DNA of 64,000 nt from Dehalococcoidia bacterium (GTDB lineage: Bacteria > Chloroflexota > Dehalococcoidia > Lucifugimonadales > DAOUAM01). Positions 32,410-41,863 of this stretch are shown piece by piece; position 1 is the stretch's first letter; every line of letters begins with the position of its first letter. The notes beneath the pieces are model-generated. The model had not been told where the DNA came from, ran no database searches, and saw nothing but the letters and a program-made list of their open reading frames with translations. Position numbers and translations under genes: made by a program. Where the stretch lies: the NCBI GenBank assembly GCA_034433305.1, contig DAOUAM010000054.1:3366-67365 (forward strand), read 5' to 3'.

Positions 32410-32595
32410 ATGGCAGAGGGCAGAGAGGACCGCAAGGGACTTGAGGGCGAGGGGAACTCCTCCAGGCAACATGCAGGCCCGCGCACGCGTCAGCCCTTCG
32501 TTGAGCCACGGCTGAGGTTCGTCGAGCCAAAGCTGGTCAAGCACGGGGACGTTACCAGGGTGACGGCGGGCTTCTTCGGCTCCTTCTCTCCGTAG
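32410..32595 (+). CDS. Candidate RiPP precursor peptide (61 aa) with a lasso-type leader motif and GFFGSFSP core
   Basis: GGGAGG lies 5 nt upstream of ATG 32410. Sequence: MAEGREDRKGLEGEGNSSRQHAGPRTRQPFVEPRLRFVEPKLVKHGDVTRVTA-GFFGSFSP. The stop is 13 nt before the kinase gene. Confidence 0.6.
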   Translation: MAEGREDRKGLEGEGNSSRQHAGPRTRQPFVEPRLRFVEPKLVKHGDVTRVTAGFFGSFSP

Positions 32596-32608: not shown

Positions 32609-33616
32609 ATGCGTGCCACGTTGGTAAAGGAACTGTACTTCCTGTGCGGGCAACCTGTGCAGGTCGTCTGCTCCGACCAGGCGCAGGCGGCAAGGCTGCG
32701 TGGCCTGTGGCGTGACCTCTTCGTGGTGACTCCCGCCGCCGGTGAGGGCGGCACGCCCGCTGTACGCCTGCACTTCGACGGCATGGGCCAGGATGAACAG
32801 AGGCCCCAGACTGGCGAGCGAGTCTTCTCGTCTCCCCCCCTGGTGGTGACCAGGACCGCTGGCGGCTTCCACATCCGCTGCCGCTCCTCCGCCATGCGCC
32901 TGGACCTGGCCGGCGGCTACGGCAACGCGTCGCTGGACGAGGACTTCTGGGACTATCCCCTGGAAGACCGGCGAGAGTTCTTCCTGCTGACATTCCTCAT
33001 GCTACTCCGCAGGCGAGGCCTGTTCGGCCTGCACGCCAACGCGGTGGAAAGCGACGGCGCTGGGCTGTTGGCGGTTGGCAGGTCGGGCTGCGGCAAGACG
33101 ACCCTCACGCTAGCCCTTGTACTGGAGGGCTGGCGCTATCTATCGGACGACGCACTGGTGCTGCGGCGAGGCCCCTCTGGCGTGGCCGCGCTGGCCTTCC
33201 GAAGGGGCATGTCCCTGACAGCGGACACCGCCGGGCGCTTCCTGGCACCTGAGGTCTGGCATGGCGGGGCAAGGCTGCGAGAGGAAAAGGTGCTGGTACA
33301 CCTGGACTCCATCTTCCCACGCAGCGCCCTGGCCAGGTGCAGGCCACGGGCCATCGTGTTCCCCAGAGTAGTGGGGGCGCGGCGCAGCCAGCTTGTGCCC
33401 GCCAGCGAAACGTCCGCCTTCGTCCGCTTGCTGGAGCAGAGCCCGGGCATCATGACCGACAGGGCCTCGGTCAAGGCCCAGGCGGAAGTCCTCAAGCTCC
33501 TCCTGGAGCAATGCAAGGCCTACGACCTGGCACTGGGCATGGACGTCTTTGAGGCCCCTGGCTCGCTCTCCAGCATACTGCGGCAGGTCCTGGAGGCTGG
33601 CCCATGCGGCGAATAG
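32609..33616 (+). CDS. HPr kinase-related (HprK C-terminal-like) kinase
   Basis: LHANAV..LLAVGRSGCGKTTLTLAL..YLSDDALVL matches the P-loop and downstream HprK-like motifs. Confidence 0.75.
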   Translation: MRATLVKELYFLCGQPVQVVCSDQAQAARLRGLWRDLFVVTPAAGEGGTPAVRLHFDGMGQDEQRPQTGERVFSSPPLVVTRTAGGFHIRCRSSAMRLDLAGGYGNASLDEDFWDYPLEDRREFFLLTFLMLLRRRGLFGLHANAVESDGAGLLAVGRSGCGKTTLTLALVLEGWRYLSDDALVLRRGPSGVAALAFRRGMSLTADTAGRFLAPEVWHGGARLREEKVLVHLDSIFPRSALARCRPRAIVFPRVVGARRSQLVPASETSAFVRLLEQSPGIMTDRASVKAQAEVLKLLLEQCKAYDLALGMDVFEAPGSLSSILRQVLEAGPCGE

Positions 33617-34641
33617 TCGTGGAGCTTACCGACCGCTGCAACTTGAGCTGCATGCACTGCTTCGCCGGAAGGCATGGCGGCAGCCATGACCTGCCCATGC
33701 ATGTCCTCCAGCGCGTGCTGGCCGAGGCCAGGGAATATGACTTCGGGCACGTGAGCTTCACCGGCGGCGACCCGACAGTCCATCCCCAGTTCCCCGAGGC
33801 GCTGCGCCTGTCCCGCGAGGCCGGCTACCAGTACAGCTTCGTCACTAACGGCTGGAACTTCACGTCCATCTATGACCGGCTGCTGCCCTACCGCGACAGG
33901 CTCACCGTGGTCACCTTCAGCCTCGATGGCGCCACGGAGGCTGTCCACGACCAGCTCCGGGGGCAAGGCTCCTTTCGCCGCGCCTTGAGAGGCATGAGCA
34001 TCTGCGTCATCGAGGACATTCCCTTCACCATCAACATGGTGGTCACGGCCCGCAACCAGCACCAGCTCGGGGAGATGGCGGCACTGGCGGCGCGCCTGGG
34101 CAGCCGTGGCCTGCGCCTGTGCCACCTGATGCCATCGCCCCGGACGGCGGCCCTGGGGCTGGACCTCTCACCCGCTGACCGCAAGGCAGTAGAGGCCCAG
34201 GTGGCCCGTTTAAGACAAGAGGCCCCTGTCCCCGTGGTCATGGCCCCGGGATACCACACTCGCGAGCTGTTCCCCTGCGCGCCCCTGAACCTGGAGGAGG
34301 TCAACGTGGACTGCCAGGGCAACCTCACCAGGTGTTGTCATCTTTCGGGCCACAGCCCGGGCACAGGGCGGGAGGACGTGGTGGGCAGCCTGCTGGCGAT
34401 GAGCTTCGGGGAAGCGTACCTGAAGCTGAAGGAGGAGGACCAGCGGTTCAGAGCGTACAAGGCTGAGCGGCTGCGGCAGGGCCGGCTGGCCGACTCGGAC
34501 CTGTTTGCTTGCTGGTACTGCTCGGTGTACTACGGTAAGGTGTGGTGGCTGAAGCGCGTCGCGGGCCACCCCTGGGGGCCGCTGGTCTGGCAGCGCGGGC
34601 CTGCGGCCTCCGCCACTGTGCCGGCTGAGGAAGGGGAGTAG
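33604..34641 (+). CDS. Radical SAM enzyme with a C-terminal SPASM/twitch-like Cys cluster
   Basis: CNLSCMHC (CxxxCxxC) at residues 12-19, FTGGDP, and C-terminal cysteines C..CQGNLTRCCHLSG..CWYC. It overlaps the kinase gene by 13 nt. Confidence 0.85.
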   Translation: MRRIVVELTDRCNLSCMHCFAGRHGGSHDLPMHVLQRVLAEAREYDFGHVSFTGGDPTVHPQFPEALRLSREAGYQYSFVTNGWNFTSIYDRLLPYRDRLTVVTFSLDGATEAVHDQLRGQGSFRRALRGMSICVIEDIPFTINMVVTARNQHQLGEMAALAARLGSRGLRLCHLMPSPRTAALGLDLSPADRKAVEAQVARLRQEAPVPVVMAPGYHTRELFPCAPLNLEEVNVDCQGNLTRCCHLSGHSPGTGREDVVGSLLAMSFGEAYLKLKEEDQRFRAYKAERLRQGRLADSDLFACWYCSVYYGKVWWLKRVAGHPWGPLVWQRGPAASATVPAEEGE

Positions 34642-34642
34642 G

Positions 34643-34927
34643 ATGGTAACTCTGAGCACCAAGGCCAGGCCCGACCCGGATGTGCTGTTCACCGGCCTCA
34701 GGAACGGGGAGTCTGTGCTGCTGCACCTGGGCACAAAGACCTACTACAGCCTCAACGAGACGGGGACGCGTATCTGGAGGCTCCTGGCGGAGGGCCTGGA
34801 GGTAGGCGAGATTGGCAGGCGGCTGGAGGCAGAGTACGATGTGACGCTGGAGCATGCCCAGTCCAGTGTCATTCGGCTGGTGGAGGCGCTGGTAAGCGAG
34901 AAGCTTGTCCTGGCCGGCGAGGGATAG
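34643..34927 (+). CDS. PqqD-family peptide chaperone (RiPP recognition element)
   Basis: 94 aa. LLHLGTKTYYSLNETGTRIWRLLAEG..EIGRRLEAEYDV is a typical PqqD/RRE pattern. It starts 1 nt after the rSAM stop. Confidence 0.8.
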   Translation: MVTLSTKARPDPDVLFTGLRNGESVLLHLGTKTYYSLNETGTRIWRLLAEGLEVGEIGRRLEAEYDVTLEHAQSSVIRLVEALVSEKLVLAGEG

Positions 34928-34950
34928 CCTGGACAGCGAGGGCATGGAAG

Positions 34951-35481
34951 ATGACCGCCATACGCCTGGCCACAGCGGCAGACGTCCCTGAACTGGCGAC
35001 GCTGTACTCCCAGGAGGCAGGCCGGCAGCAGGCCATGGACCCGGTCGTGCAGGTCCTGCCGGGCGTCAACTGGGCTGCCTACGTGGCCGCCAGGCTCCGT
35101 CGCAGGAACGCCGCCATCTTCGTGGCCGAGGACGAAAGTGGGCTGGTCGGCTACATAGACCTCCGCATAGCCCATCGCGGCGCGACGGGCGGCCTGTTGG
35201 CGGCGGTGCGAAGGCTGGCCGGCCGCTGGCGGGGACAGGTGCCCTCAGTCCTGGCACCCAGACGCTACGGCTTCATCGAGGACCTGTATGTCCACCCTCG
35301 CCTGGCAGGCCGCGCTGTATGGGTCGGCATACGGCTGCTGAACGCTGGCCTGCGGTGGTGCCGCCAGCACCGTCTGTCCCACGTGGAGGGCGCCATAGCT
35401 ATCTCCAACGAGAGCGCCCGCGCCCTGGCGGACAGGCTGGGGTTCTCCGCCGCCTGGGTCCTCGTTCGGCGAGAGCTATGA
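34951..35481 (+). CDS. GNAT family N-acetyltransferase
   Basis: IRLATAADVPELATLY..FVAEDESGLVGYIDL..GIRLLNAGLRWC is an acetyl-CoA-binding-type pattern. Confidence 0.8.
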   Translation: MTAIRLATAADVPELATLYSQEAGRQQAMDPVVQVLPGVNWAAYVAARLRRRNAAIFVAEDESGLVGYIDLRIAHRGATGGLLAAVRRLAGRWRGQVPSVLAPRRYGFIEDLYVHPRLAGRAVWVGIRLLNAGLRWCRQHRLSHVEGAIAISNESARALADRLGFSAAWVLVRREL

Positions 35482-35491
35482 CGCCCGGAGG

Positions 35492-36967
35492 CTAGCTCTC
35501 AGGGATGCCGTAAACATCCACGAAGAAGTCGAAACGCTCGCGCCTGACCAGGCCAATCTCATAGGCCAGGGAGAAGGTCTCGCCCGGCTGGAGGATGCCA
35601 TCGCCCAGTGCTTCCGGTGGCACCGAGAGTATGGAGCCTACCCCACCCGACCCACCGTCCGCGTTGAGCACCACGTGGCCGCCAGATAGCACCATCACCA
35701 CCGTGTGCATGTCTGTGATGTCCACCGAGGAGATGTTCTTCCACGTGGCGGTTATGGTGTAAACGCCAGCGGGGGCGCGGTTATCGGCGGGATTGTAGGA
35801 GGTGGTGAGGTTTTGAAGGCTGAGCAGGTCATTGACCAGCACCGGCTCCGGTGCGCTGGCCGGCGTTACCTCCACCGTGACCAGGGCTATGTCAGTGCCG
35901 CCCTGGCCGTCGCTGACCGTGTAGGTGAAGGTGTCGGTGCCCTGAAAGCCGGAGGCGGGCTGGTAGGTCACTGTGCCGTCGGGGTTCACCTGCACTGTGC
36001 CGTTGGAGGCCTGGGTCACGGCGATCACTTCCAGGTCTGCGTTCTCGGGGTCCGAGTCGTTGTCCAGGACATCAACGTCCACCGGTGTCCCTGCTGGCGT
36101 GGACGCAGCGTCGTCCACCGCCACGGGCGGGCGCGTGTCCACGAAGCTCCCCGCCTTGATGAACACTGCCGAGTCCAGCAAGTCGTCACCGGCGTCGCCG
36201 ATGGCCAGCTTGATGTGGTTGGTCTCGTCGGCTATTACCTCGGCCTCGACCATCAGCACGACAGTGAGGCCGTCCAGCTCTGTGTTGACGGTGCCTCCGC
36301 CGTCGTCCAGGTCGTTGTTGATGTACAGGTCAGGGTGGCTGGCGTTTATGCCAAAGGGGTTGCCACCATTGACGTTGTTGATGGCTACGGGCGTGGCGTT
36401 GCCAGGAATGAGCGCAACGTTGTCCCCATTGAGAAAGAAGGCAAAGACGTCGTTGAAGGGGCTGTTGACAAACTCGTTATACTCTTCTGATGCGAAGACA
36501 TACTCAAAGGTAATGATGTCGTGGCTGGGAACGAAATCAAACTCCAGCACAGCCGCGTCGAAGGTCTGCACCTCCTGCTCCGCCACCAGCGCATCCAGGT
36601 CGTCGTCGCCCGGGGCGCCGTTGCTGCCTGACATGAAGTCGCTGAGGTTGGGCCCTGCCACGTCGGCTGCGGAGCCTGTGCTCAGGACAATGCCACTGTC
36701 GAACCCGATAATTCCATTCCCGCCGGTAAACGTGCCCGCGGCGGCTTCCACGCCGTGGTACTGGACGTTGCTCACGGTCACGTCGCCCCCACCCAAAAGA
36801 GCCGCCACCAGGTCTTCGGGAGTCTGGCCGGACAGATCAGAAACCACAAGGTCGCTATCGGCGTGTGCCTGGGTCACCCAGGAGAGCCAGAGGGCCACGG
36901 CCAGCAGCAGCGTCAGCTTCACCAGGATGCGACCGATGCCATCGGGGGCTACACCTGTCCTGTACAT
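35492..36967 (-). CDS. Secreted choice-of-anchor L domain protein with a cadherin-like/Ig repeat
   Basis: Signal peptide (LLLAVALWLSWVTQAHA). NVQYHGVEAAAGTFTGG..GIVLSTG..LEFDFVP..FEYVFASEEYNEF..NDVFAFFLNG..IGDAGDDLLDSAVFI. Then VAVDDAASTPAGTPVDVDVLDNDSDPE. GGAGG upstream of ATG 36967. Confidence 0.75.
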   Translation of the reverse strand: MYRTGVAPDGIGRILVKLTLLLAVALWLSWVTQAHADSDLVVSDLSGQTPEDLVAALLGGGDVTVSNVQYHGVEAAAGTFTGGNGIIGFDSGIVLSTGSAADVAGPNLSDFMSGSNGAPGDDDLDALVAEQEVQTFDAAVLEFDFVPSHDIITFEYVFASEEYNEFVNSPFNDVFAFFLNGDNVALIPGNATPVAINNVNGGNPFGINASHPDLYINNDLDDGGGTVNTELDGLTVVLMVEAEVIADETNHIKLAIGDAGDDLLDSAVFIKAGSFVDTRPPVAVDDAASTPAGTPVDVDVLDNDSDPENADLEVIAVTQASNGTVQVNPDGTVTYQPASGFQGTDTFTYTVSDGQGGTDIALVTVEVTPASAPEPVLVNDLLSLQNLTTSYNPADNRAPAGVYTITATWKNISSVDITDMHTVVMVLSGGHVVLNADGGSGGVGSILSVPPEALGDGILQPGETFSLAYEIGLVRRERFDFFVDVYGIPES

Positions 36968-37177
36968 AGGTCCTCCGCAAGGGCTTCCCGGCCCCTGGCC
37001 GCGGCCGGCGACGGCTGTATGCCTCCTGGCACGGCAGAGGCCGGGCAACACTGTTCCGACTTCGCTTTCCAGTACTGGAATGGACTCCCACGCCCCACTG
37101 GAAACATGCGGATGGACGCACACGAAGCGGGCGCTGAGTAACGCTGATGGCGCGGCCCTTGGGGTGGTCTGGCTGCC

Positions 37178-38266
37178 ATGAAGGTCCTCGCCGAAGCCGA
37201 GTTCCTGACCTGCTGCTGCCGCGAGGAGGCATCGCGGGACGCGGAGGCGCCGCGCACCAGTGCGGCGGCGGTACGGCGCTGGGAGCAGGTAGTCCTGCTG
37301 GCCGCCAGGCATGGGGTAGCTGGCCTGGTGCTACCCACCGTGGAGTCGTTAGCGCGGGAAGGAAGTGCCCCCCTGGAGGCCGAGGCAGGACTCCGGCGCA
37401 TCGCCGCGCTCCACGTCGCCAGGACGGCGCGCCTGCGGCTGGCCCTGACTGAGGTACTGGCCGCGGCGCGACAGCGCGGTGTGAAGGTCATGGTACTGAA
37501 AGGCGCGGCGCTGGGGACCATGCTCTACCAGGACCCACTGCTACGGCCCTCCCAGGACATAGACTTGCTCTGCCAGGAGACCGAATACGAAGGCGTGCGC
37601 GACACACTGCTGCGCCTGGGCTACACCACGCAGGACGGGCTTGCCACAGTCCGCCGGCGTGCTTCCCTGGAGACCCTTTTCGAGCGCCACTTTCAGCACC
37701 CCGACGGCCTCGTAGAGGTAGAGCTTCACACAGACTGCATCAAGCTGGGAGTAAGGCCCCGGCACTCCGAGGCCATCTGGGGCAGGGCGATGGCCGTGGA
37801 GATAGACGGCGAGCCAGCCCTGACGCTGGCCCCGGACGACCAGGTGCTGGTGCTGAGCATCCACCTGCACCGGCACGGCTTCAACAGGCTCATCTGGTTC
37901 AAGGACATGGACCTGCTGCTGCGCCTGTACGGGCCCTCGCTGGACTGGGAGAGGATATGCGCCGAGGCTGGCAGCGAAGGGGCGACGCCATCCCTCTGGT
38001 ACACCCTGAGCTTGCTGGCTGCCATCCTCCACCCACCCATTCCGCCGGAGGTGCTGCGCGTGACAAGGCCGCCGGCTATCATCAGATGGGCGCTGGCGCG
38101 TATCTGGCCGGAAGCGGAGGTCGTGAACCTGCGGAGCAAGACCAGGAGGCGGGCCGTCCAGTTCAGCGTGCATGAGTCCTGGCGCGGGACGCTGCCCAGC
38201 CTGGTGCTGATGGGCCGCAGGCGCGAGAAGGTCGGCATACTGCTGCGCCGCCTGCTGCCAGGCTAG
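37178..38266 (+). CDS. Uncharacterised nucleotidyltransferase family protein (PF14907-like)
   Basis: 362 aa. SQDIDLLC, VELHTD and FKDMDLL motifs, plus the N-terminal 'rescue' helix region typical of the family seen next to PqqD/HprK-like genes. Confidence 0.6.
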   Translation: MKVLAEAEFLTCCCREEASRDAEAPRTSAAAVRRWEQVVLLAARHGVAGLVLPTVESLAREGSAPLEAEAGLRRIAALHVARTARLRLALTEVLAAARQRGVKVMVLKGAALGTMLYQDPLLRPSQDIDLLCQETEYEGVRDTLLRLGYTTQDGLATVRRRASLETLFERHFQHPDGLVEVELHTDCIKLGVRPRHSEAIWGRAMAVEIDGEPALTLAPDDQVLVLSIHLHRHGFNRLIWFKDMDLLLRLYGPSLDWERICAEAGSEGATPSLWYTLSLLAAILHPPIPPEVLRVTRPPAIIRWALARIWPEAEVVNLRSKTRRRAVQFSVHESWRGTLPSLVLMGRRREKVGILLRRLLPG

Positions 38267-39976: not shown

Positions 39977-41017
39977 CTACAATGGCAGGTACACCTTCTT
40001 GCCTGACTGGCCGCTGCGGATGACAGCCTCGGTGAACTCCATGTACTTCACGCCGTCCTCGAAGGATGTGTGAGTGACAGGCTCCAGGCCACGGATGGCA
40101 TTGATGAACTCCTCCTCCACGCGCCAACGCCCCTGCTTCTCCGGCGGCACGGGTATCTCGGCCAGCTTGTCGTCGCCACGCCGGCCGCCGAAGAGCTTGA
40201 GCGTGGGCGCGTCCAGGTGCAGCGTGCCGTCGGTGCCGAACATCCAGACGCCGTCGGAGGGCGCCAGGCCGGTGACGGTACTGAAGCGCATGTGGACCAC
40301 CGGGCCAGAGGCCATCTCGCACAGTACCTCCACGTGGTCGGGGATGGTGATGTAGCGAAGACCGCCAGCCTCGTCCTTGCGGGACGTCACGTTGACCCTG
40401 GTAAGGGCCATGACGCTGCCCGCCGGGCCCAGCCAGCGCATCATGGCCTCGTACCAGATGCCCATCTGCATAGTGTTGTAGCCGCTCAGGTCGCGGTTAT
40501 GGCGCCAGTGGAAGGGAGCGTCGTAGTCTATGAAGCTGCCCTGGTGGACCGCCATGTCCACCGAGAGGATTTTGCCCAGGTAGCCATCAGCGATAAGCTC
40601 CTTGATGACCTTGTCCACCTTGAGCGTATGGGGAGCAGGGACGATCTGGGTCACCAGCTTTGGCTTCTTGCGGGCGGCGGCCAGCATGGTGTGGGCCTCG
40701 GCGGCGTTCATGGCCATGCGGGCCTCGGTCAGGACGTGCTTGTTGGCGTCCAGGGCGGCCAGCACCAGGGTGCAGTGCATGTAGGGCCAGGTGCCGATGC
40801 AGATGGCGTCGGTGTCCGGCGCGGCGATGAGGTCTTGCCAGTTATCGTACACCCTGGGGATTTCGTACTCGTCGGCGATCTTCTGGCCGGACTCGCGGCT
40901 GCGGTTGGCAACACTGATAATGTCCACGCCCTGGATGGCCTTGAAGCCCGGGATGTGCCGGAGCCGGGTGTTGGCCCCGGCGCCGACCAGGCCGATGCGA
41001 ATGATGTCGTTGGTCAT
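39977..41017 (-). CDS. Gfo/Idh/MocA family oxidoreductase
   Basis: IRIGLVGAGANTRLRHIPGF Rossmann N-terminus and the C-terminal alpha/beta domain. Confidence 0.85.
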   Translation of the reverse strand: MTNDIIRIGLVGAGANTRLRHIPGFKAIQGVDIISVANRSRESGQKIADEYEIPRVYDNWQDLIAAPDTDAICIGTWPYMHCTLVLAALDANKHVLTEARMAMNAAEAHTMLAAARKKPKLVTQIVPAPHTLKVDKVIKELIADGYLGKILSVDMAVHQGSFIDYDAPFHWRHNRDLSGYNTMQMGIWYEAMMRWLGPAGSVMALTRVNVTSRKDEAGGLRYITIPDHVEVLCEMASGPVVHMRFSTVTGLAPSDGVWMFGTDGTLHLDAPTLKLFGGRRGDDKLAEIPVPPEKQGRWRVEEEFINAIRGLEPVTHTSFEDGVKYMEFTEAVIRSGQSGKKVYLPL

Positions 41018-41167
41018 GTCCCGTCCTCTCTCGAAGGAGTGTTGAGCATCGGGTCAGATTATAGGCGAGCGGCTGGGCATAGTCCAGCCACCCGCCCCGG
41101 AGGCCATTGCCTGGTCTGGCCGCTCGCTGCTACGGGCAGGCGCGCCAATGCCTGGACATCCGCCTGG

Positions 41168-41863
41168 TCACAGGAACCTGTCAAGCTCGGTCAAACTAGC
41201 GACCCAGGGCATGGTGCCGCTGGCAGGCCGTCCGTAGCGGGCCATCAGCACGGCGGCGAGGCCCAGCTTGCTGGCAGCCTCCACATTCTCTGGCGCATCG
41301 TCCACGAACAGGATGTTTTCAGGCGGCAAGCCCAGGGCCTCGATGGCGGCCCGGAATATCCTGGTATCAGGCTTGGAGCAGCCCACGTGGCAGGACAGGA
41401 CGAAGGCCCTGAAATACTCGCGCAGCCCCAGGAGACGGTACTTCCGGTCCAGCGAGGGCCAGGTGTTGGACAGGATGCCCAGCTCCACGCCGGCCTCTTG
41501 CAACGCATTGAGGGCCGGGTGAGTGTCCGGAAAGACCTCGAAATTGGGTACGCTTACCAGCACGTCGGCCAGCGTCCAGGAGAGGTCGTGGGGAGGCGAG
41601 GCCAGCCCCATGCGCTTCAGCAGGATGTCATAGAACACCTGGAACTGGGCACGCTCCTCGTCCTCCGTGCTGAGGCGGTGATTGTCAGTGAGGTACCTGA
41701 GGCCCTCCTGAATGCCTGCCTCCAGCTGTCCCCAGTCAAGCTCCCGGACTCCCCTGGCGGCCAGCACCTCACGGAAGTGATGGCCCGGAAGCCACGTGCC
41801 TCCTAGCGGGCGCACCAGCGTGTCGCCGGAGTCCAGCAGAATACCCTTGATGTCGCCTGACAT
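41168..41863 (-). CDS. HAD-superfamily hydrolase
   Basis: ILLDSGDTLV (DxD motif I), SNT (motif II) and FVDDAPENV (motif IV). ATG at 41863. Confidence 0.75.
   Translation of the reverse strand: MSGDIKGILLDSGDTLVRPLGGTWLPGHHFREVLAARGVRELDWGQLEAGIQEGLRYLTDNHRLSTEDEERAQFQVFYDILLKRMGLASPPHDLSWTLADVLVSVPNFEVFPDTHPALNALQEAGVELGILSNTWPSLDRKYRLLGLREYFRAFVLSCHVGCSKPDTRIFRAAIEALGLPPENILFVDDAPENVEAASKLGLAAVLMARYGRPASGTMPWVASLTELDRFL

Follow-up and report, generated by a model that had tools for sequence, protein, structure and literature searches.

A predicted RiPP pathway of the phosphorylated lasso/LPP type with a radical SAM enzyme, from a Dehalococcoidia locus and its relatives

The window (the whole stretch of Dehalococcoidia DNA that was analysed, 64 kb) contained a locus that is predicted from its genes to be a radical SAM (rSAM)-containing variant of the phosphorylated lasso/LPP (linear polyphosphorylated peptide) type of RiPP pathway. 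With a probability of roughly 60%, it represents an uncharacterised RiPP family that is a descendant or sibling of the phosphorylated lasso/LPP machinery, in which an rSAM enzyme replaces the lasso cyclase. This reading is built on features established by sequence analysis and comparison of loci: which genes are present and how well they are conserved, the motifs of leader and core, catalytic motifs that are intact, and the lack of a cyclase. The pathway is widespread, and its product is probably modified by the rSAM enzyme and the kinase and not tied into a lasso.

The preliminary description of this locus reported four tightly packed genes, and their ORFs, spacing and motifs (GRSGCGKTT...SDD and CNLSCMHC) were all confirmed. 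On the forward strand, these genes encode an HprK-like P-loop kinase of the HprK/PEPCK fold (32609-33616, 335 aa), an rSAM enzyme (33604-34641, 345 aa), a discrete PqqD-family RRE that is nearest to lasso B1 (34643-34927, 94 aa), and an accessory GNAT acetyltransferase (34951-35481, 176 aa). The kinase and rSAM genes overlap by 13 nt, whereas gaps of 1 nt and 23 nt separate rSAM from PqqD and PqqD from GNAT, respectively. HMM searches matched all of the family assignments (Hpr_kinase_C and, below its cutoff, TIGR04352; PF04055; PF05402; PF00583). The 61-aa precursor peptide is encoded on the same strand at 32410-32595 (leader, 32410-32568; core, 32569-32592, followed by the stop codon), and is separated from the kinase gene by 13 nt. 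The four-gene delimitation was too small, as an NTP_transf_5 nucleotidyltransferase-fold protein (37178-38266, forward strand; PF14907, 167.7 bits) and a secreted adhesin (35492-36967, reverse strand, 491 aa) also belong to the system. An Rfam scan of the 64-kb window gave no matches.

The gene linkage was strongly conserved across 40 loci from at least eight phyla. These loci contained the kinase (40), PqqD (35), the precursor (34), NTP_transf_5 (32), the leader protease B2 (22), GNAT (10), and a signal-peptidase-like protein (5), and their hosts included Chloroflexota, Deinococcota, Planctomycetota, Acidobacteriota, Nitrospirota, Desulfobacterota-like, and gamma-proteobacterial MAGs. The loci with GNAT spanned several phyla. 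In locus L085, the rSAM enzyme is 85% identical to that of the window and the gene architecture is preserved. The kinase gene adjoined the rSAM gene in all 40 loci, directly upstream and often overlapping; thus, the kinase is no optional tailoring enzyme of the lasso kind but just as obligate as the rSAM enzyme. It was fused to B2 in one locus (L025).

The kinase scored 55.6 bits against TIGR04352 (HprK_rel_A), which is below the cutoff of 200, and its H142, Walker A motif (G157xSGxGK163), and D180-D181 were kept in 34 homologues. Its AF2 model resembled ATP-PEPCK and HprK/P, and was of moderate confidence (pLDDT 74) because the word-indexed homologue search gave 12 matches. The rSAM enzyme matched PF04055 with 80 bits and had more than 450 close homologues, among which the nearest named ones were from Chloroflexota MAGs. 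Its cluster motif (C12-x3-C16-x2-C19) was nearly invariant in 30 homologues. The C-terminal domain contained six conserved cysteines arranged as CX13GX4C(C) ... CX2C only, whereas the seven-cysteine SPASM motif reads CX9-15GX4C...CX2CX5CX3C...C. A homologue with 55% identity matched SPASM positions 5-46 of 67 with 26.5 bits. The SPASM part of the earlier assignment was only partly right: neither Pfam nor NCBIfam detected SPASM in the window enzyme, and, judged by its cysteine pattern, the C-terminal domain resembles a truncated SPASM or a twitch-like domain with degenerate Fe-S features. The AF2 model of the rSAM enzyme (pLDDT 90) matched BlsE, SuiB, SkfB, anSME, PqqE, and CteB, the nearest folds being those of BlsE and SkfB, both twitch enzymes, and of SPASM enzymes. 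No NCBIfam family reached its cutoff for this enzyme, and the best was MftC (106 vs. 265 bits). The rSAM enzyme lacked an N-terminal RRE and therefore needs the discrete PqqD, to which it was fused in one homologue (P0103).

The PqqD protein matched PF05402 with 66.8 bits and scored below cutoff against lasso_PqqD_Bac (52 bits) and lasso_PqqD_Strm (46.6 bits), while the remaining PqqD models gave at most 21 bits. GNAT matched PF00583 with 37.7 bits, and G109 and D127xD129 were the conserved residues of NTP_transf_5. In locus L087, a sulfotransferase occupied the usual place of NTP_transf_5, which again suggests that tailoring takes place on a hydroxyl.

The ATG of the precursor is preceded by a GGAGG Shine-Dalgarno sequence, the 61-aa reading is preferred, and an identical 61-aa product is recorded in NCBI/Logan. 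With 19.5 bits against a curated cutoff of 19, the precursor qualified for NCBIfam lasso_leader_L3. Its leader carries two tandem FxxPxL motifs followed by GxxxxxTx, and FVEPKLVKHGDVTRVTA fits the lasso consensus YxxPxLx3Gx5Tx that is recognised by the B1 RRE; the leader motif was kept across 24 aligned precursors. The proposed RiPP-type operon with a true lasso-type leader, a B1-like RRE and an rSAM enzyme in the place of the lasso cyclase was upheld by these features. Homologues of the precursor were found in the related loci (33) and in the database (1,214 relatives, counted as clusters). A sister group (L028 and L032) combined YVEPxVL leaders with Cys-rich cores.

The core consists of eight residues, GFFGSFSP, and F-F-G-x-F-(S/T)-P was essentially invariant in the best 120 of the 1,214 database precursors. 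Among these 120, F1, F2, and F5 were conserved in 100%, G3 in 98%, and P7 in 97%, and the chain terminated at Pro7 in 53%. Core positions 4 and 6 were variable, and all 120 carried Ser, Thr, or Tyr at one of them. GFFGSFSP had no Asp or Glu at core positions 7-9, and no acidic residue occurred in the motif of the best 120; together with the frequent end at Pro7, this indicates that the macrolactam acceptor is absent. Cysteine was likewise missing from the window core and from the FFGxF(S/T)P motif of the best 120 relatives. A core with neither Cys nor a ring-forming Asp or Glu cannot give a lasso, a sactipeptide, or a ranthipeptide, and the latter two were ruled out by the Cys-free core. Furthermore, as most cores end in Pro, the kinase cannot have a C-terminal Ser as its target.

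The earlier statement that a cyclase and B2 are missing from the 64 kb agreed with the motif search, the ORF scan and a B2 profile built from the related loci, which were all negative. The SGGxDS PP-loop motif was absent in every frame of the window and from 39 related loci; in all, 0 of 14,060 frames contained it. All twelve scanned window ORFs of at least 435 aa matched housekeeping or unrelated families; a 578-aa ORF (40070-41806) was checked for a cyclase by the motif search only. This ORF overlaps an oxidoreductase-like gene (39977-41017) on the opposite strand. None of the 40 loci contained an asparagine-synthetase-like PP-loop cyclase within +/-10 kb, even where B2 occurred, a canonical lasso B2/C pair was found in no homologous locus, and no large protein family recurred in the neighbourhoods of the related loci. 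With the linkage strongly conserved and the B2/C pair missing throughout, neither of the two grounds for rejection named in the preliminary description applied. B2 itself was present in 22 of the 40 loci (49-84 bits against the lasso_biosyn_B2 cutoff of 33) and retained its Cys and His, a signal-peptidase-I-like protease was found in five, and 13 had no nearby leader protease. Lack of a leader protease thus holds for the window, but not for the related loci with B2 or a signal-peptidase-I-like protease. No exporter or transporter family was conserved across the locus neighbourhoods.

In the proposed route, the B1-type PqqD would bind the [F/Y/W]xxPxL...G(x5)Tx leader and offer the core to the enzymes. 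The rSAM enzyme would abstract a hydrogen atom in the F-F-G-x-F-(S/T)-P core, and an intramolecular carbon-carbon (cyclophane-like) crosslink that engages the invariant Phe residues would be the most likely outcome, making the octapeptide rigid in place of a lasso fold. Owing to the variable positions 4 and 6 and to Gly3 (sometimes Gly4), which has no C-beta, there is no fully conserved canonical three-residue cyclophane motif except F5-x-P7, and the rSAM enzyme could alternatively catalyse epimerisation or hydroxylation, or act only after phosphorylation. The HprK-like kinase would (poly)phosphorylate Ser or Thr at core position 6, or at position 4 if position 6 is not hydroxylated. Phe-centred crosslinking and Ser phosphorylation, as suggested in the preliminary description, are still plausible. 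NTP_transf_5 may then add a hexose or a nucleotide to the phosphate, as proposed for PsmN and LppN, and GNAT, if present, would acetylate the new N-terminus, the sole available amine. The leader would be cleaved after Thr(-2)-x by B2 or a signal-peptidase-like protease in most genomes, and presumably by a protease unlinked to the locus in this organism.

The closest published system is the LPP family of Bacillota, which comprises an RRE together with an HprK-like kinase, an NTP transferase, and a leader peptidase resembling signal peptidases, but no cyclase (Popov et al., Nat Commun 2026; PMC13381572). Its kinase LppK polyphosphorylates an internal Ser in a leader-bearing peptide that is presented by an RRE (PMC13381572). 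The window shares with LPP the HprK-like kinase, the discrete RRE, an NTP transferase (compared with LppN by description), and the lack of a cyclase. LPP leaders also contain a lasso-like [Y/W]xxP RRE-binding motif, the LPP leader peptidase has a counterpart in five of the 40 present loci, and both families are linked to the cell envelope or to polysaccharide loci. On the other hand, the LPP core gene set lacks an rSAM gene, a term missing from the main text of the LPP paper (PMC13381572), whereas the present family has one. LPP cores are long and variable (precursors of 35-200 aa), in contrast to an invariant 7-residue motif here, and the leaders read YxxPxVLxHQxIxFETxxS in LPP and FxxPxLxxxGxxxxxTx in the present family. 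LPP has an MsbA-like exporter and the archaeal-type signal peptidase I-like LppS, neither of which was found in the window, and the commoner protease of the present family is B2, unlike in LPP. LPP was reported as restricted to Bacillota, whereas the present family occurs in Chloroflexota, Deinococcota, Planctomycetota, Acidobacteriota, Nitrospirota, and others. The locus had been put forward as an undescribed RiPP class; cyclase-less kinase/NTP-transferase clusters were meanwhile published in 2026 as LPP (PMC13381572), but these have no rSAM enzyme, another core and other hosts. No account of the present system was found in full-text literature searches, in which the LPP paper and a lasso-modification review came nearest.

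Phosphorylated lasso peptides (paeninodin, pseudomycoidin; PMC9266682) share with the present family the leader consensus, a B1-type PqqD, an HprK-like kinase, and an NTP_transf_5-type enzyme, and one lasso peptide is phosphorylated and then glycosylated by PsmK and PsmN (PMC9266682). They also share B2 with the related loci, and GNAT and sulfotransferase accessories occur in both. Unlike these systems, the present family has no asparagine-synthetase-like cyclase, Asp/Glu acceptor, or ABC exporter, and its rSAM enzyme is obligate. The rSAM-SPASM/twitch RiPP maturases (PqqE/PqqD, MftC/MftB, SuiB, SkfB, CteB, triceptide 3-CyFE) have the CX3CX2C core, an auxiliary-cluster domain, RRE dependence, and a short conserved aromatic-rich core in common with the present system, but differ from it in that the latter has only six auxiliary Cys and a core without the Cys, Tyr, Trp, Lys, and Glu that these maturases use. 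To our knowledge, none of them has a kinase as obligate partner. Haft's bioinformatic cassettes (SynChlorMet ScmC/D/E/F, GeoRSP, and HPr-rel-A), which are uncharacterised, show the same combination of HprK-like, PqqD, and rSAM/SPASM domains, and precomputed Pfam ScmC (PF27840) matches were present on several kinases of the present family. The window proteins are not SynChlorMet or GeoRSP members, since they scored 20 (ScmC), 20 (ScmD), 82 (ScmF), and 51 bits (GeoRSP_rSAM) against cutoffs of 125, 100, 400, and 400, respectively. A lasso-type leader, B2, and NTP_transf_5 are, as far as we know, not part of the cassette definitions.

The adhesin starts at the ATG at 36967, which carries a GGAGG and was fixed by comparison with L085, and contains a signal peptide, choice-of-anchor L, and cadherin/Big_9 domains (NCBIfam, Pfam), followed by a novel C-terminal domain (CTD, 35495-35869). 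Proteins with this CTD of ~120 aa were located beside or inside the clusters at 21 of 38 rSAM-seeded loci. Sequence searches of Pfam, NCBIfam, and PDB with the CTD gave nothing significant, and the domain is rare (840 matches among 1.84e9 representative proteins). Six CTD proteins end in an FFGxFxP tail as in the precursor core, whereas most have no FFG tail, and a CTD-seeded search from a tight alignment revealed many CTD loci without the system nearby. The genetic association of the CTD with the pathway emerged from the present analysis. A donor-strand arrangement, in which tail-less CTDs lie beside clusters and tailed ones away from them as trans strand complementation would have it, was rejected because the cluster-adjacent CTD proteins were of mixed tail types, with no clean correlation.

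The lasso-type leader and PqqD, the B2 in 22 of 40 related loci, and enzyme types known from lasso tailoring (kinase, NTP transferase, acetyltransferase, and sulfotransferase; PMC9266682) would also fit an ordinary lasso cluster with its cyclase and B2 elsewhere in the genome and with the rSAM enzyme, kinase, and GNAT in tailoring roles. This reading is very improbable: it is largely refuted by the core, which lacks Asp/Glu at positions 7-9 and ends at Pro7 in 53% of the best 120 precursors, the PP-loop cyclase was missing from the vicinity of B2-bearing loci too, and the kinase and rSAM enzyme are obligate rather than optional. It is scarcely credible that a lasso cluster is decaying here into a non-functional remnant. 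The window does lack a protease and an exporter, but every ORF is intact and tightly coupled, catalytic residues are kept in dozens of homologues across phyla, and L085 retains the architecture.

The peptide might instead be the scaffold on which a small cofactor-like or signalling molecule is built, as with PQQ and mycofactocin, which would suit a core that is ultra-conserved across phyla, the absence of a dedicated exporter, and rSAM family scores that were best for MftC and PqqE-type enzymes, whose PqqD partners are discrete. However, Phe, Gly, and Pro are ill suited as precursors of redox cofactors, no dependent oxidoreductases were conserved in the neighbourhoods, and B2, kinase, NTP transferase, GNAT, and sulfotransferase are typical of peptide products, which makes a scaffold role quite improbable. 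Somewhat less improbable, although still unlikely, is that the secreted CTD proteins are the main clients of the enzymes, which would modify or sort their C-terminal tails (e.g., ...GFFGRFRP-COOH), with the small leader-bearing ORFs as secondary substrates or regulators. Such a rare domain at more than half of the rSAM-seeded loci, the six precursor-like tails, and the "choice-of-anchor" domain of the window protein favour this explanation. Nevertheless, the CTD proteins have signal peptides and the enzymes do not, an RRE-binding leader is missing from the FFG-tailed proteins, such tails are absent from most CTD proteins, and many CTD loci do not have the system in their vicinity. Conservation is also far higher, and numbers are greater (1,214 clusters), for the small precursors, which sit immediately upstream of the kinase, typically no more than a few hundred nucleotides away.

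If the rSAM-containing phosphorylated lasso/LPP-type reading is true, lasso-type leader, RRE, and protease machinery has been re-used with an rSAM enzyme and an obligate kinase, and the product would be a very small, extremely conserved peptide in at least eight phyla, most of them poorly cultured. It would bring a new class-defining modification to RiPP chemistry, extend the LPP concept beyond Bacillota, and make kinase-rSAM cooperation testable. The link to the rare, unmodelled adhesin CTD points to a role in the envelope or biofilm matrix, and the cell envelope, alongside CTD-bearing surface proteins, is where the product probably acts. We know of almost no such roles among RiPPs, and the question of physiological role is likewise left open for paeninodins and LPPs. 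A more speculative idea, which we offer tentatively, is that, once crosslinked, phosphorylated, and maybe glycosyl- or nucleotidyl-decorated, the FFGxF(S/T)P peptide acts as cognate ligand or as anchor of the CTD on diverse surface adhesins and not as an antibiotic, in a RiPP-based surface display or matrix assembly. The motif would then be present in cis on some proteins (...GFFGRFRP-COOH) and supplied in trans to others. An FFGRFRP C-terminus was also found on large leaderless secreted proteins of anammox-type genomes, and the role of the motif may therefore not depend on RRE-guided modification.

Judged from sequence, the locus belongs to a large RiPP family, uncharacterised, lasso-derived, and without a cyclase, which is defined by the pairing of a radical SAM enzyme (rSAM) with an HprK-like kinase and by an FFGxF(S/T)P core. 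Four co-directional ORFs, described earlier as HprK-like kinase, radical SAM, PqqD, and GNAT genes, were reproduced on the forward strand at 32609-33616, 33604-34641, 34643-34927, and 34951-35481, together with the 13-nt overlap of the kinase and rSAM genes and the gaps of 1 nt (rSAM-PqqD) and 23 nt (PqqD-GNAT). Pfam and NCBIfam domain searches agreed with these assignments: the first product was a P-loop protein of the HprK type, with matches to Hpr_kinase_C and to TIGR04352 (55.6 bits, far under the cutoff of 200), and the next three matched PF04055 (80 bits), PF05402 (66.8 bits), and PF00583. The RiPP-type operon with a lasso-type leader proposed in the preliminary description stood; its SPASM label was only partly right, and its scope of four genes was too small. 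The locus also contained an NTP_transf_5 gene (37178-38266, forward strand; PF14907, 168 bits) and, between GNAT and NTP_transf_5 on the reverse strand, a gene for a secreted adhesin of 491 aa with choice-of-anchor L and cadherin/Big_9 domains (35492-36967).

The precursor ORF is best read, from its sequence context, as 32410-32595 (forward strand), which would encode 61 aa and has a GGAGG ahead of its ATG; the same 61-aa product is recorded in public assemblies. It only just attained the curated cutoff of NCBIfam lasso_leader_L3, and the consensus [F/Y/W]xxPxLxxxGxxxxxTx is that of a textbook lasso leader, as had been claimed. A second FxxPxL copy preceded the leader motif in most lineages. 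The window carried two tandem [F/W]xEPKL motifs of the RRE-binding type (FVEPRL-R-FVEPKL, 32494-32538, alignment A2), RRE being the leader-binding PqqD-type domain, and Trueperaceae precursors carried only one; such tandem motifs might recruit two RRE-dependent partners. A profile search recovered 1,214 precursor clusters, every one annotated as hypothetical. Among the best 120 of these, the core F-F-G-x-F-(S/T)-P had invariant F1, F2, and F5, with G3 in 98%, Ser or Thr at position 6 in 87%, and P7 in 97% (as the last residue in 53%), while Ser, Thr, or Tyr occupied position 4 or 6 in 120/120. The leader Thr mostly lay two residues ahead of FF in the same set, so that B2-type cleavage would free GFFGxF(S/T)P. 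In four loci of Trueperaceae MAGs (L019, L020, L021, and L007), two to three precursor copies alternated with lipoprotein-like LRR/DUF11 genes on the same strand, upstream of the kinase and rSAM genes.

The earlier statement that the 64 kb contained neither an asparagine-synthetase-like cyclase nor a B2 protease was borne out by motif, ORF, and B2-profile searches. Asparagine-synthetase-like cyclases carry an SGGxDS PP-loop signature, which occurred in no frame of the window; the twelve scanned ORFs of at least 435 aa included no cyclase, all being housekeeping or unrelated genes (Lon, AlaRS, TGT, shikimate kinase/DHQ synthase, MFS transporters, and others). A 578-aa ORF (40070-41806), covered by the SGGxDS motif search, looks spurious; an oxidoreductase-like gene overlaps it on the other strand. 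A lasso B2 profile made from related loci found no match in the window.

Profile searches over 40 loci, including this window, detected the kinase in all 40, PqqD in 35, the precursor in 34, NTP_transf_5 in 32, lasso B2 in 22, GNAT in 10, and a signal-peptidase-I-like protease in 5; in 13 loci, the window among them, these searches found no nearby protease. The kinase gene directly preceded the rSAM gene in nearly all 40. The B2 proteins exceeded the curated lasso_biosyn_B2 cutoff (49-84 versus 33 bits), and the SGGxDS motif was found in 0/40 loci. The preliminary description had named an unconserved linkage and homologous loci with a canonical B2/C pair as points against its reading; the linkage proved to be conserved, and the B2/C pair occurred in none of the 40. 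An rSAM-PqqD fusion (P0103, 436 aa) and a B2-HprK-like kinase fusion (L025:4617-6113, 498 aa) support a putative physical coupling of the components. L085, whose rSAM is 85% identical to that of the window, had the same gene order, adhesin included. More than 450 close rSAM homologues were found, the best 120 with 51-100% identity and chiefly from Chloroflexota MAGs, and a scan of species-representative genomes added homologues from Trueperaceae, Planctomycetota (Brocadia, Jettenia, and Novipirellula), Acidobacteriota, Nitrospirota, Thermodesulfovibrionia, delta-proteobacterial MAGs, and Competibacteraceae. Genes for the export or biosynthesis of polysaccharides (Wzz, Poly_export, Wzy_C, GT4 glycosyltransferases, and Wzt-type ABC) adjoined some clusters (L004:629-7019, L031:7535-8686, and L011:13111-14523), recalling the capsule-locus setting of paeninodin and of the linear polyphosphorylated peptide (LPP) gene clusters.

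The C-terminal domain of the window rSAM gave no SPASM match in Pfam or NCBIfam; it contains six conserved Cys in the arrangement CX13GX4C(C)...CX2C, and in one homologue the match to the SPASM model covered only its first two-thirds. For the high-confidence predicted structure (pLDDT 90), BlsE and SkfB, both twitch enzymes, were the nearest matches, followed closely by the SPASM enzymes SuiB, anSME, PqqE, and CteB. Because its cluster motif begins at residue 12, the rSAM has no built-in RRE and would therefore rely on the discrete PqqD. The kinase retained His142, Walker A G157xSGxGK163, and Asp180-Asp181, which we take to match the His, P-loop, and Asp-Asp conserved in HprK/P, and its predicted structure matched ATP-PEPCK and HprK/P. 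The G...DxD nucleotidyltransferase motif was retained in NTP_transf_5, as were the Cys and His in the B2 proteins of related loci.

We consider an RRE-guided peptide maturation pathway that combines rSAM and kinase to be the probable function (probability about 0.6). PqqD would bind the leader, the rSAM would modify the invariant aromatic core, and the kinase would (poly)phosphorylate the conserved hydroxyl at core position 6 or 4, with NTP_transf_5 possibly decorating the phosphate. The new N-terminus, the sole amine in the core, would be acetylated by GNAT, and the leader would be removed by B2, by a signal-peptidase-like protease, or, in the organism of this window, by an unlinked protease. 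For the rSAM step, the best guess would be a cyclophane-type, intramolecular C-C crosslink standing in structurally for the lasso fold, held with far lower confidence than the pathway as a whole. In the Caldilineaceae locus L087, a sulfotransferase (PF00685, 9712-10644) adjoined B2 in the usual place of PqqD and NTP_transf_5; this replacement of NTP_transf_5 again points to a hydroxyl as the tailoring site. Since the kinase and the rSAM are each obligate and their translation is coupled, one of the two reactions may need the other, for example, speculatively, with phosphate as a leaving group in a radical step. Parts of the proposed pathway have precedents: LppK acts on a precursor presented by an RRE and polyphosphorylates it at an internal Ser, and LPP leader cleavage requires earlier phosphorylation (PMC13381572), while pseudomycoidin is phosphorylated by PsmK and then glycosylated by PsmN (PMC9266682).

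Lasso, sactipeptide, and ranthipeptide products were ruled out because the core has neither Cys nor a ring-forming Asp or Glu. The top NCBIfam matches of the window PqqD were two lasso-B1 models (52 and 46.6 bits, both below cutoff). The nearest published system is the LPP family of 2026, reported as restricted to Bacillota, which has a lasso-like leader, a stand-alone RRE, a kinase of the HprK-like type, an NTP transferase, a signal-peptidase-I-like leader peptidase, an MsbA-like exporter, and no cyclase (PMC13381572). The window family shares this leader, RRE, kinase, and transferase logic without a cyclase. In contrast to LPP, however, it has an obligate rSAM and a short, invariant core, usually employs B2 rather than a signal-peptidase-like protease, lacks an exporter, and occurs in other hosts. 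A sister group (L028, 5893-12645; L029; and L032) bridges the two families; its loci contained a kinase, two PqqDs, two rSAMs (the second with a full SPASM), a signal-peptidase-like protease, NTP_transf_5, and two to four precursors that join YVEPxVL leaders to Cys-rich cores (GGCGCG). Since no window protein reached a curated NCBIfam enzyme-family cutoff (release of June 2026), and scores with the SynChlorMet and GeoRSP models were far below theirs, the locus was filed outside the lasso, LPP, and characterised rSAM-RiPP families, as a related new type.

The longest adhesin ORF (606 aa; 35492-37312, reverse strand) runs into the start of NTP_transf_5. Comparison with L085 reset the start to the ATG at 36967, preceded by GGAGG, which gives a signal peptide and 491 aa and leaves a divergent intergenic region of 210 bp. 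The final ~120-125 residues (35495-35869, reverse strand; residues 367-491 of the adhesin) form a C-terminal domain (CTD) with no sequence match in Pfam, NCBIfam, or PDB; its consensus is ...GxFTIxAxFxNxS...LTGGNLLLNADGGPGGVG...PGESFxVxFxIGLxxxxPFxFFVDVxG, and its short signature NADGGPGGVG ... FxFFVDVxG. The CTD ends otherwise unrelated repeat proteins with signal peptides (LTD/CLIPPER, beta-helix/PMP, FG-GAP, and beta-propellers) and is rare: 840 matches at E <= 1e-3 came from a set of 1.84e9 representative proteins. Nevertheless, in 21/38 rSAM-seeded loci, the genes for CTD proteins adjoined the clusters or lay within them, with the CTD gene placed between core genes in L016 and L033. Beyond the window, the CTD was recorded in L001, L003, L008, L010, L014, L016, L017, L033, L086, L087, L097, and L112. 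The CTD was absent from the four Trueperaceae loci. A reciprocal CTD-seeded metagenome scan found system genes in 7/32 loci and the full system in three of the nine of at least 8 kb; L088 and L089, both with system genes, are near relatives of the window, and L089 lies on the same contig as L085. This linkage suggests an envelope or matrix role, echoes the capsule-locus setting of LPP and paeninodin (PMC13381572), and motivates the reading, from gene context, that the mature peptide may be a ligand or anchor for the CTD.

Three tail types follow the CTD. In the first, which includes the window adhesin, the protein stops at once. The second, found in many Chloroflexota-type proteins (P0263-P0405; L001:5800-8550, L003:5248-8184, and L087:4138-6885), is ~42 aa long and contains a strand, GFxFx(V/I)xE, and, at its very C-terminus, (L/I)(Y/F)LP(L/I)(V/I)x(K/R)-COOH, a motif that may be an undescribed sorting signal. 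The third is basic, of similar length (~42 residues past the CTD), and ends in (G/R/K)FFGRFRP or, more broadly, (G/R/K)FFGRF(R/Y)P(K/Q), a motif shared with the precursor core. This type was found in large, leaderless, secreted CTD proteins: four of the best 150 matches (P0300, P0306, P0331, and P0379) and two of Brocadia (L010:435-1712 and L010:5146-9519).
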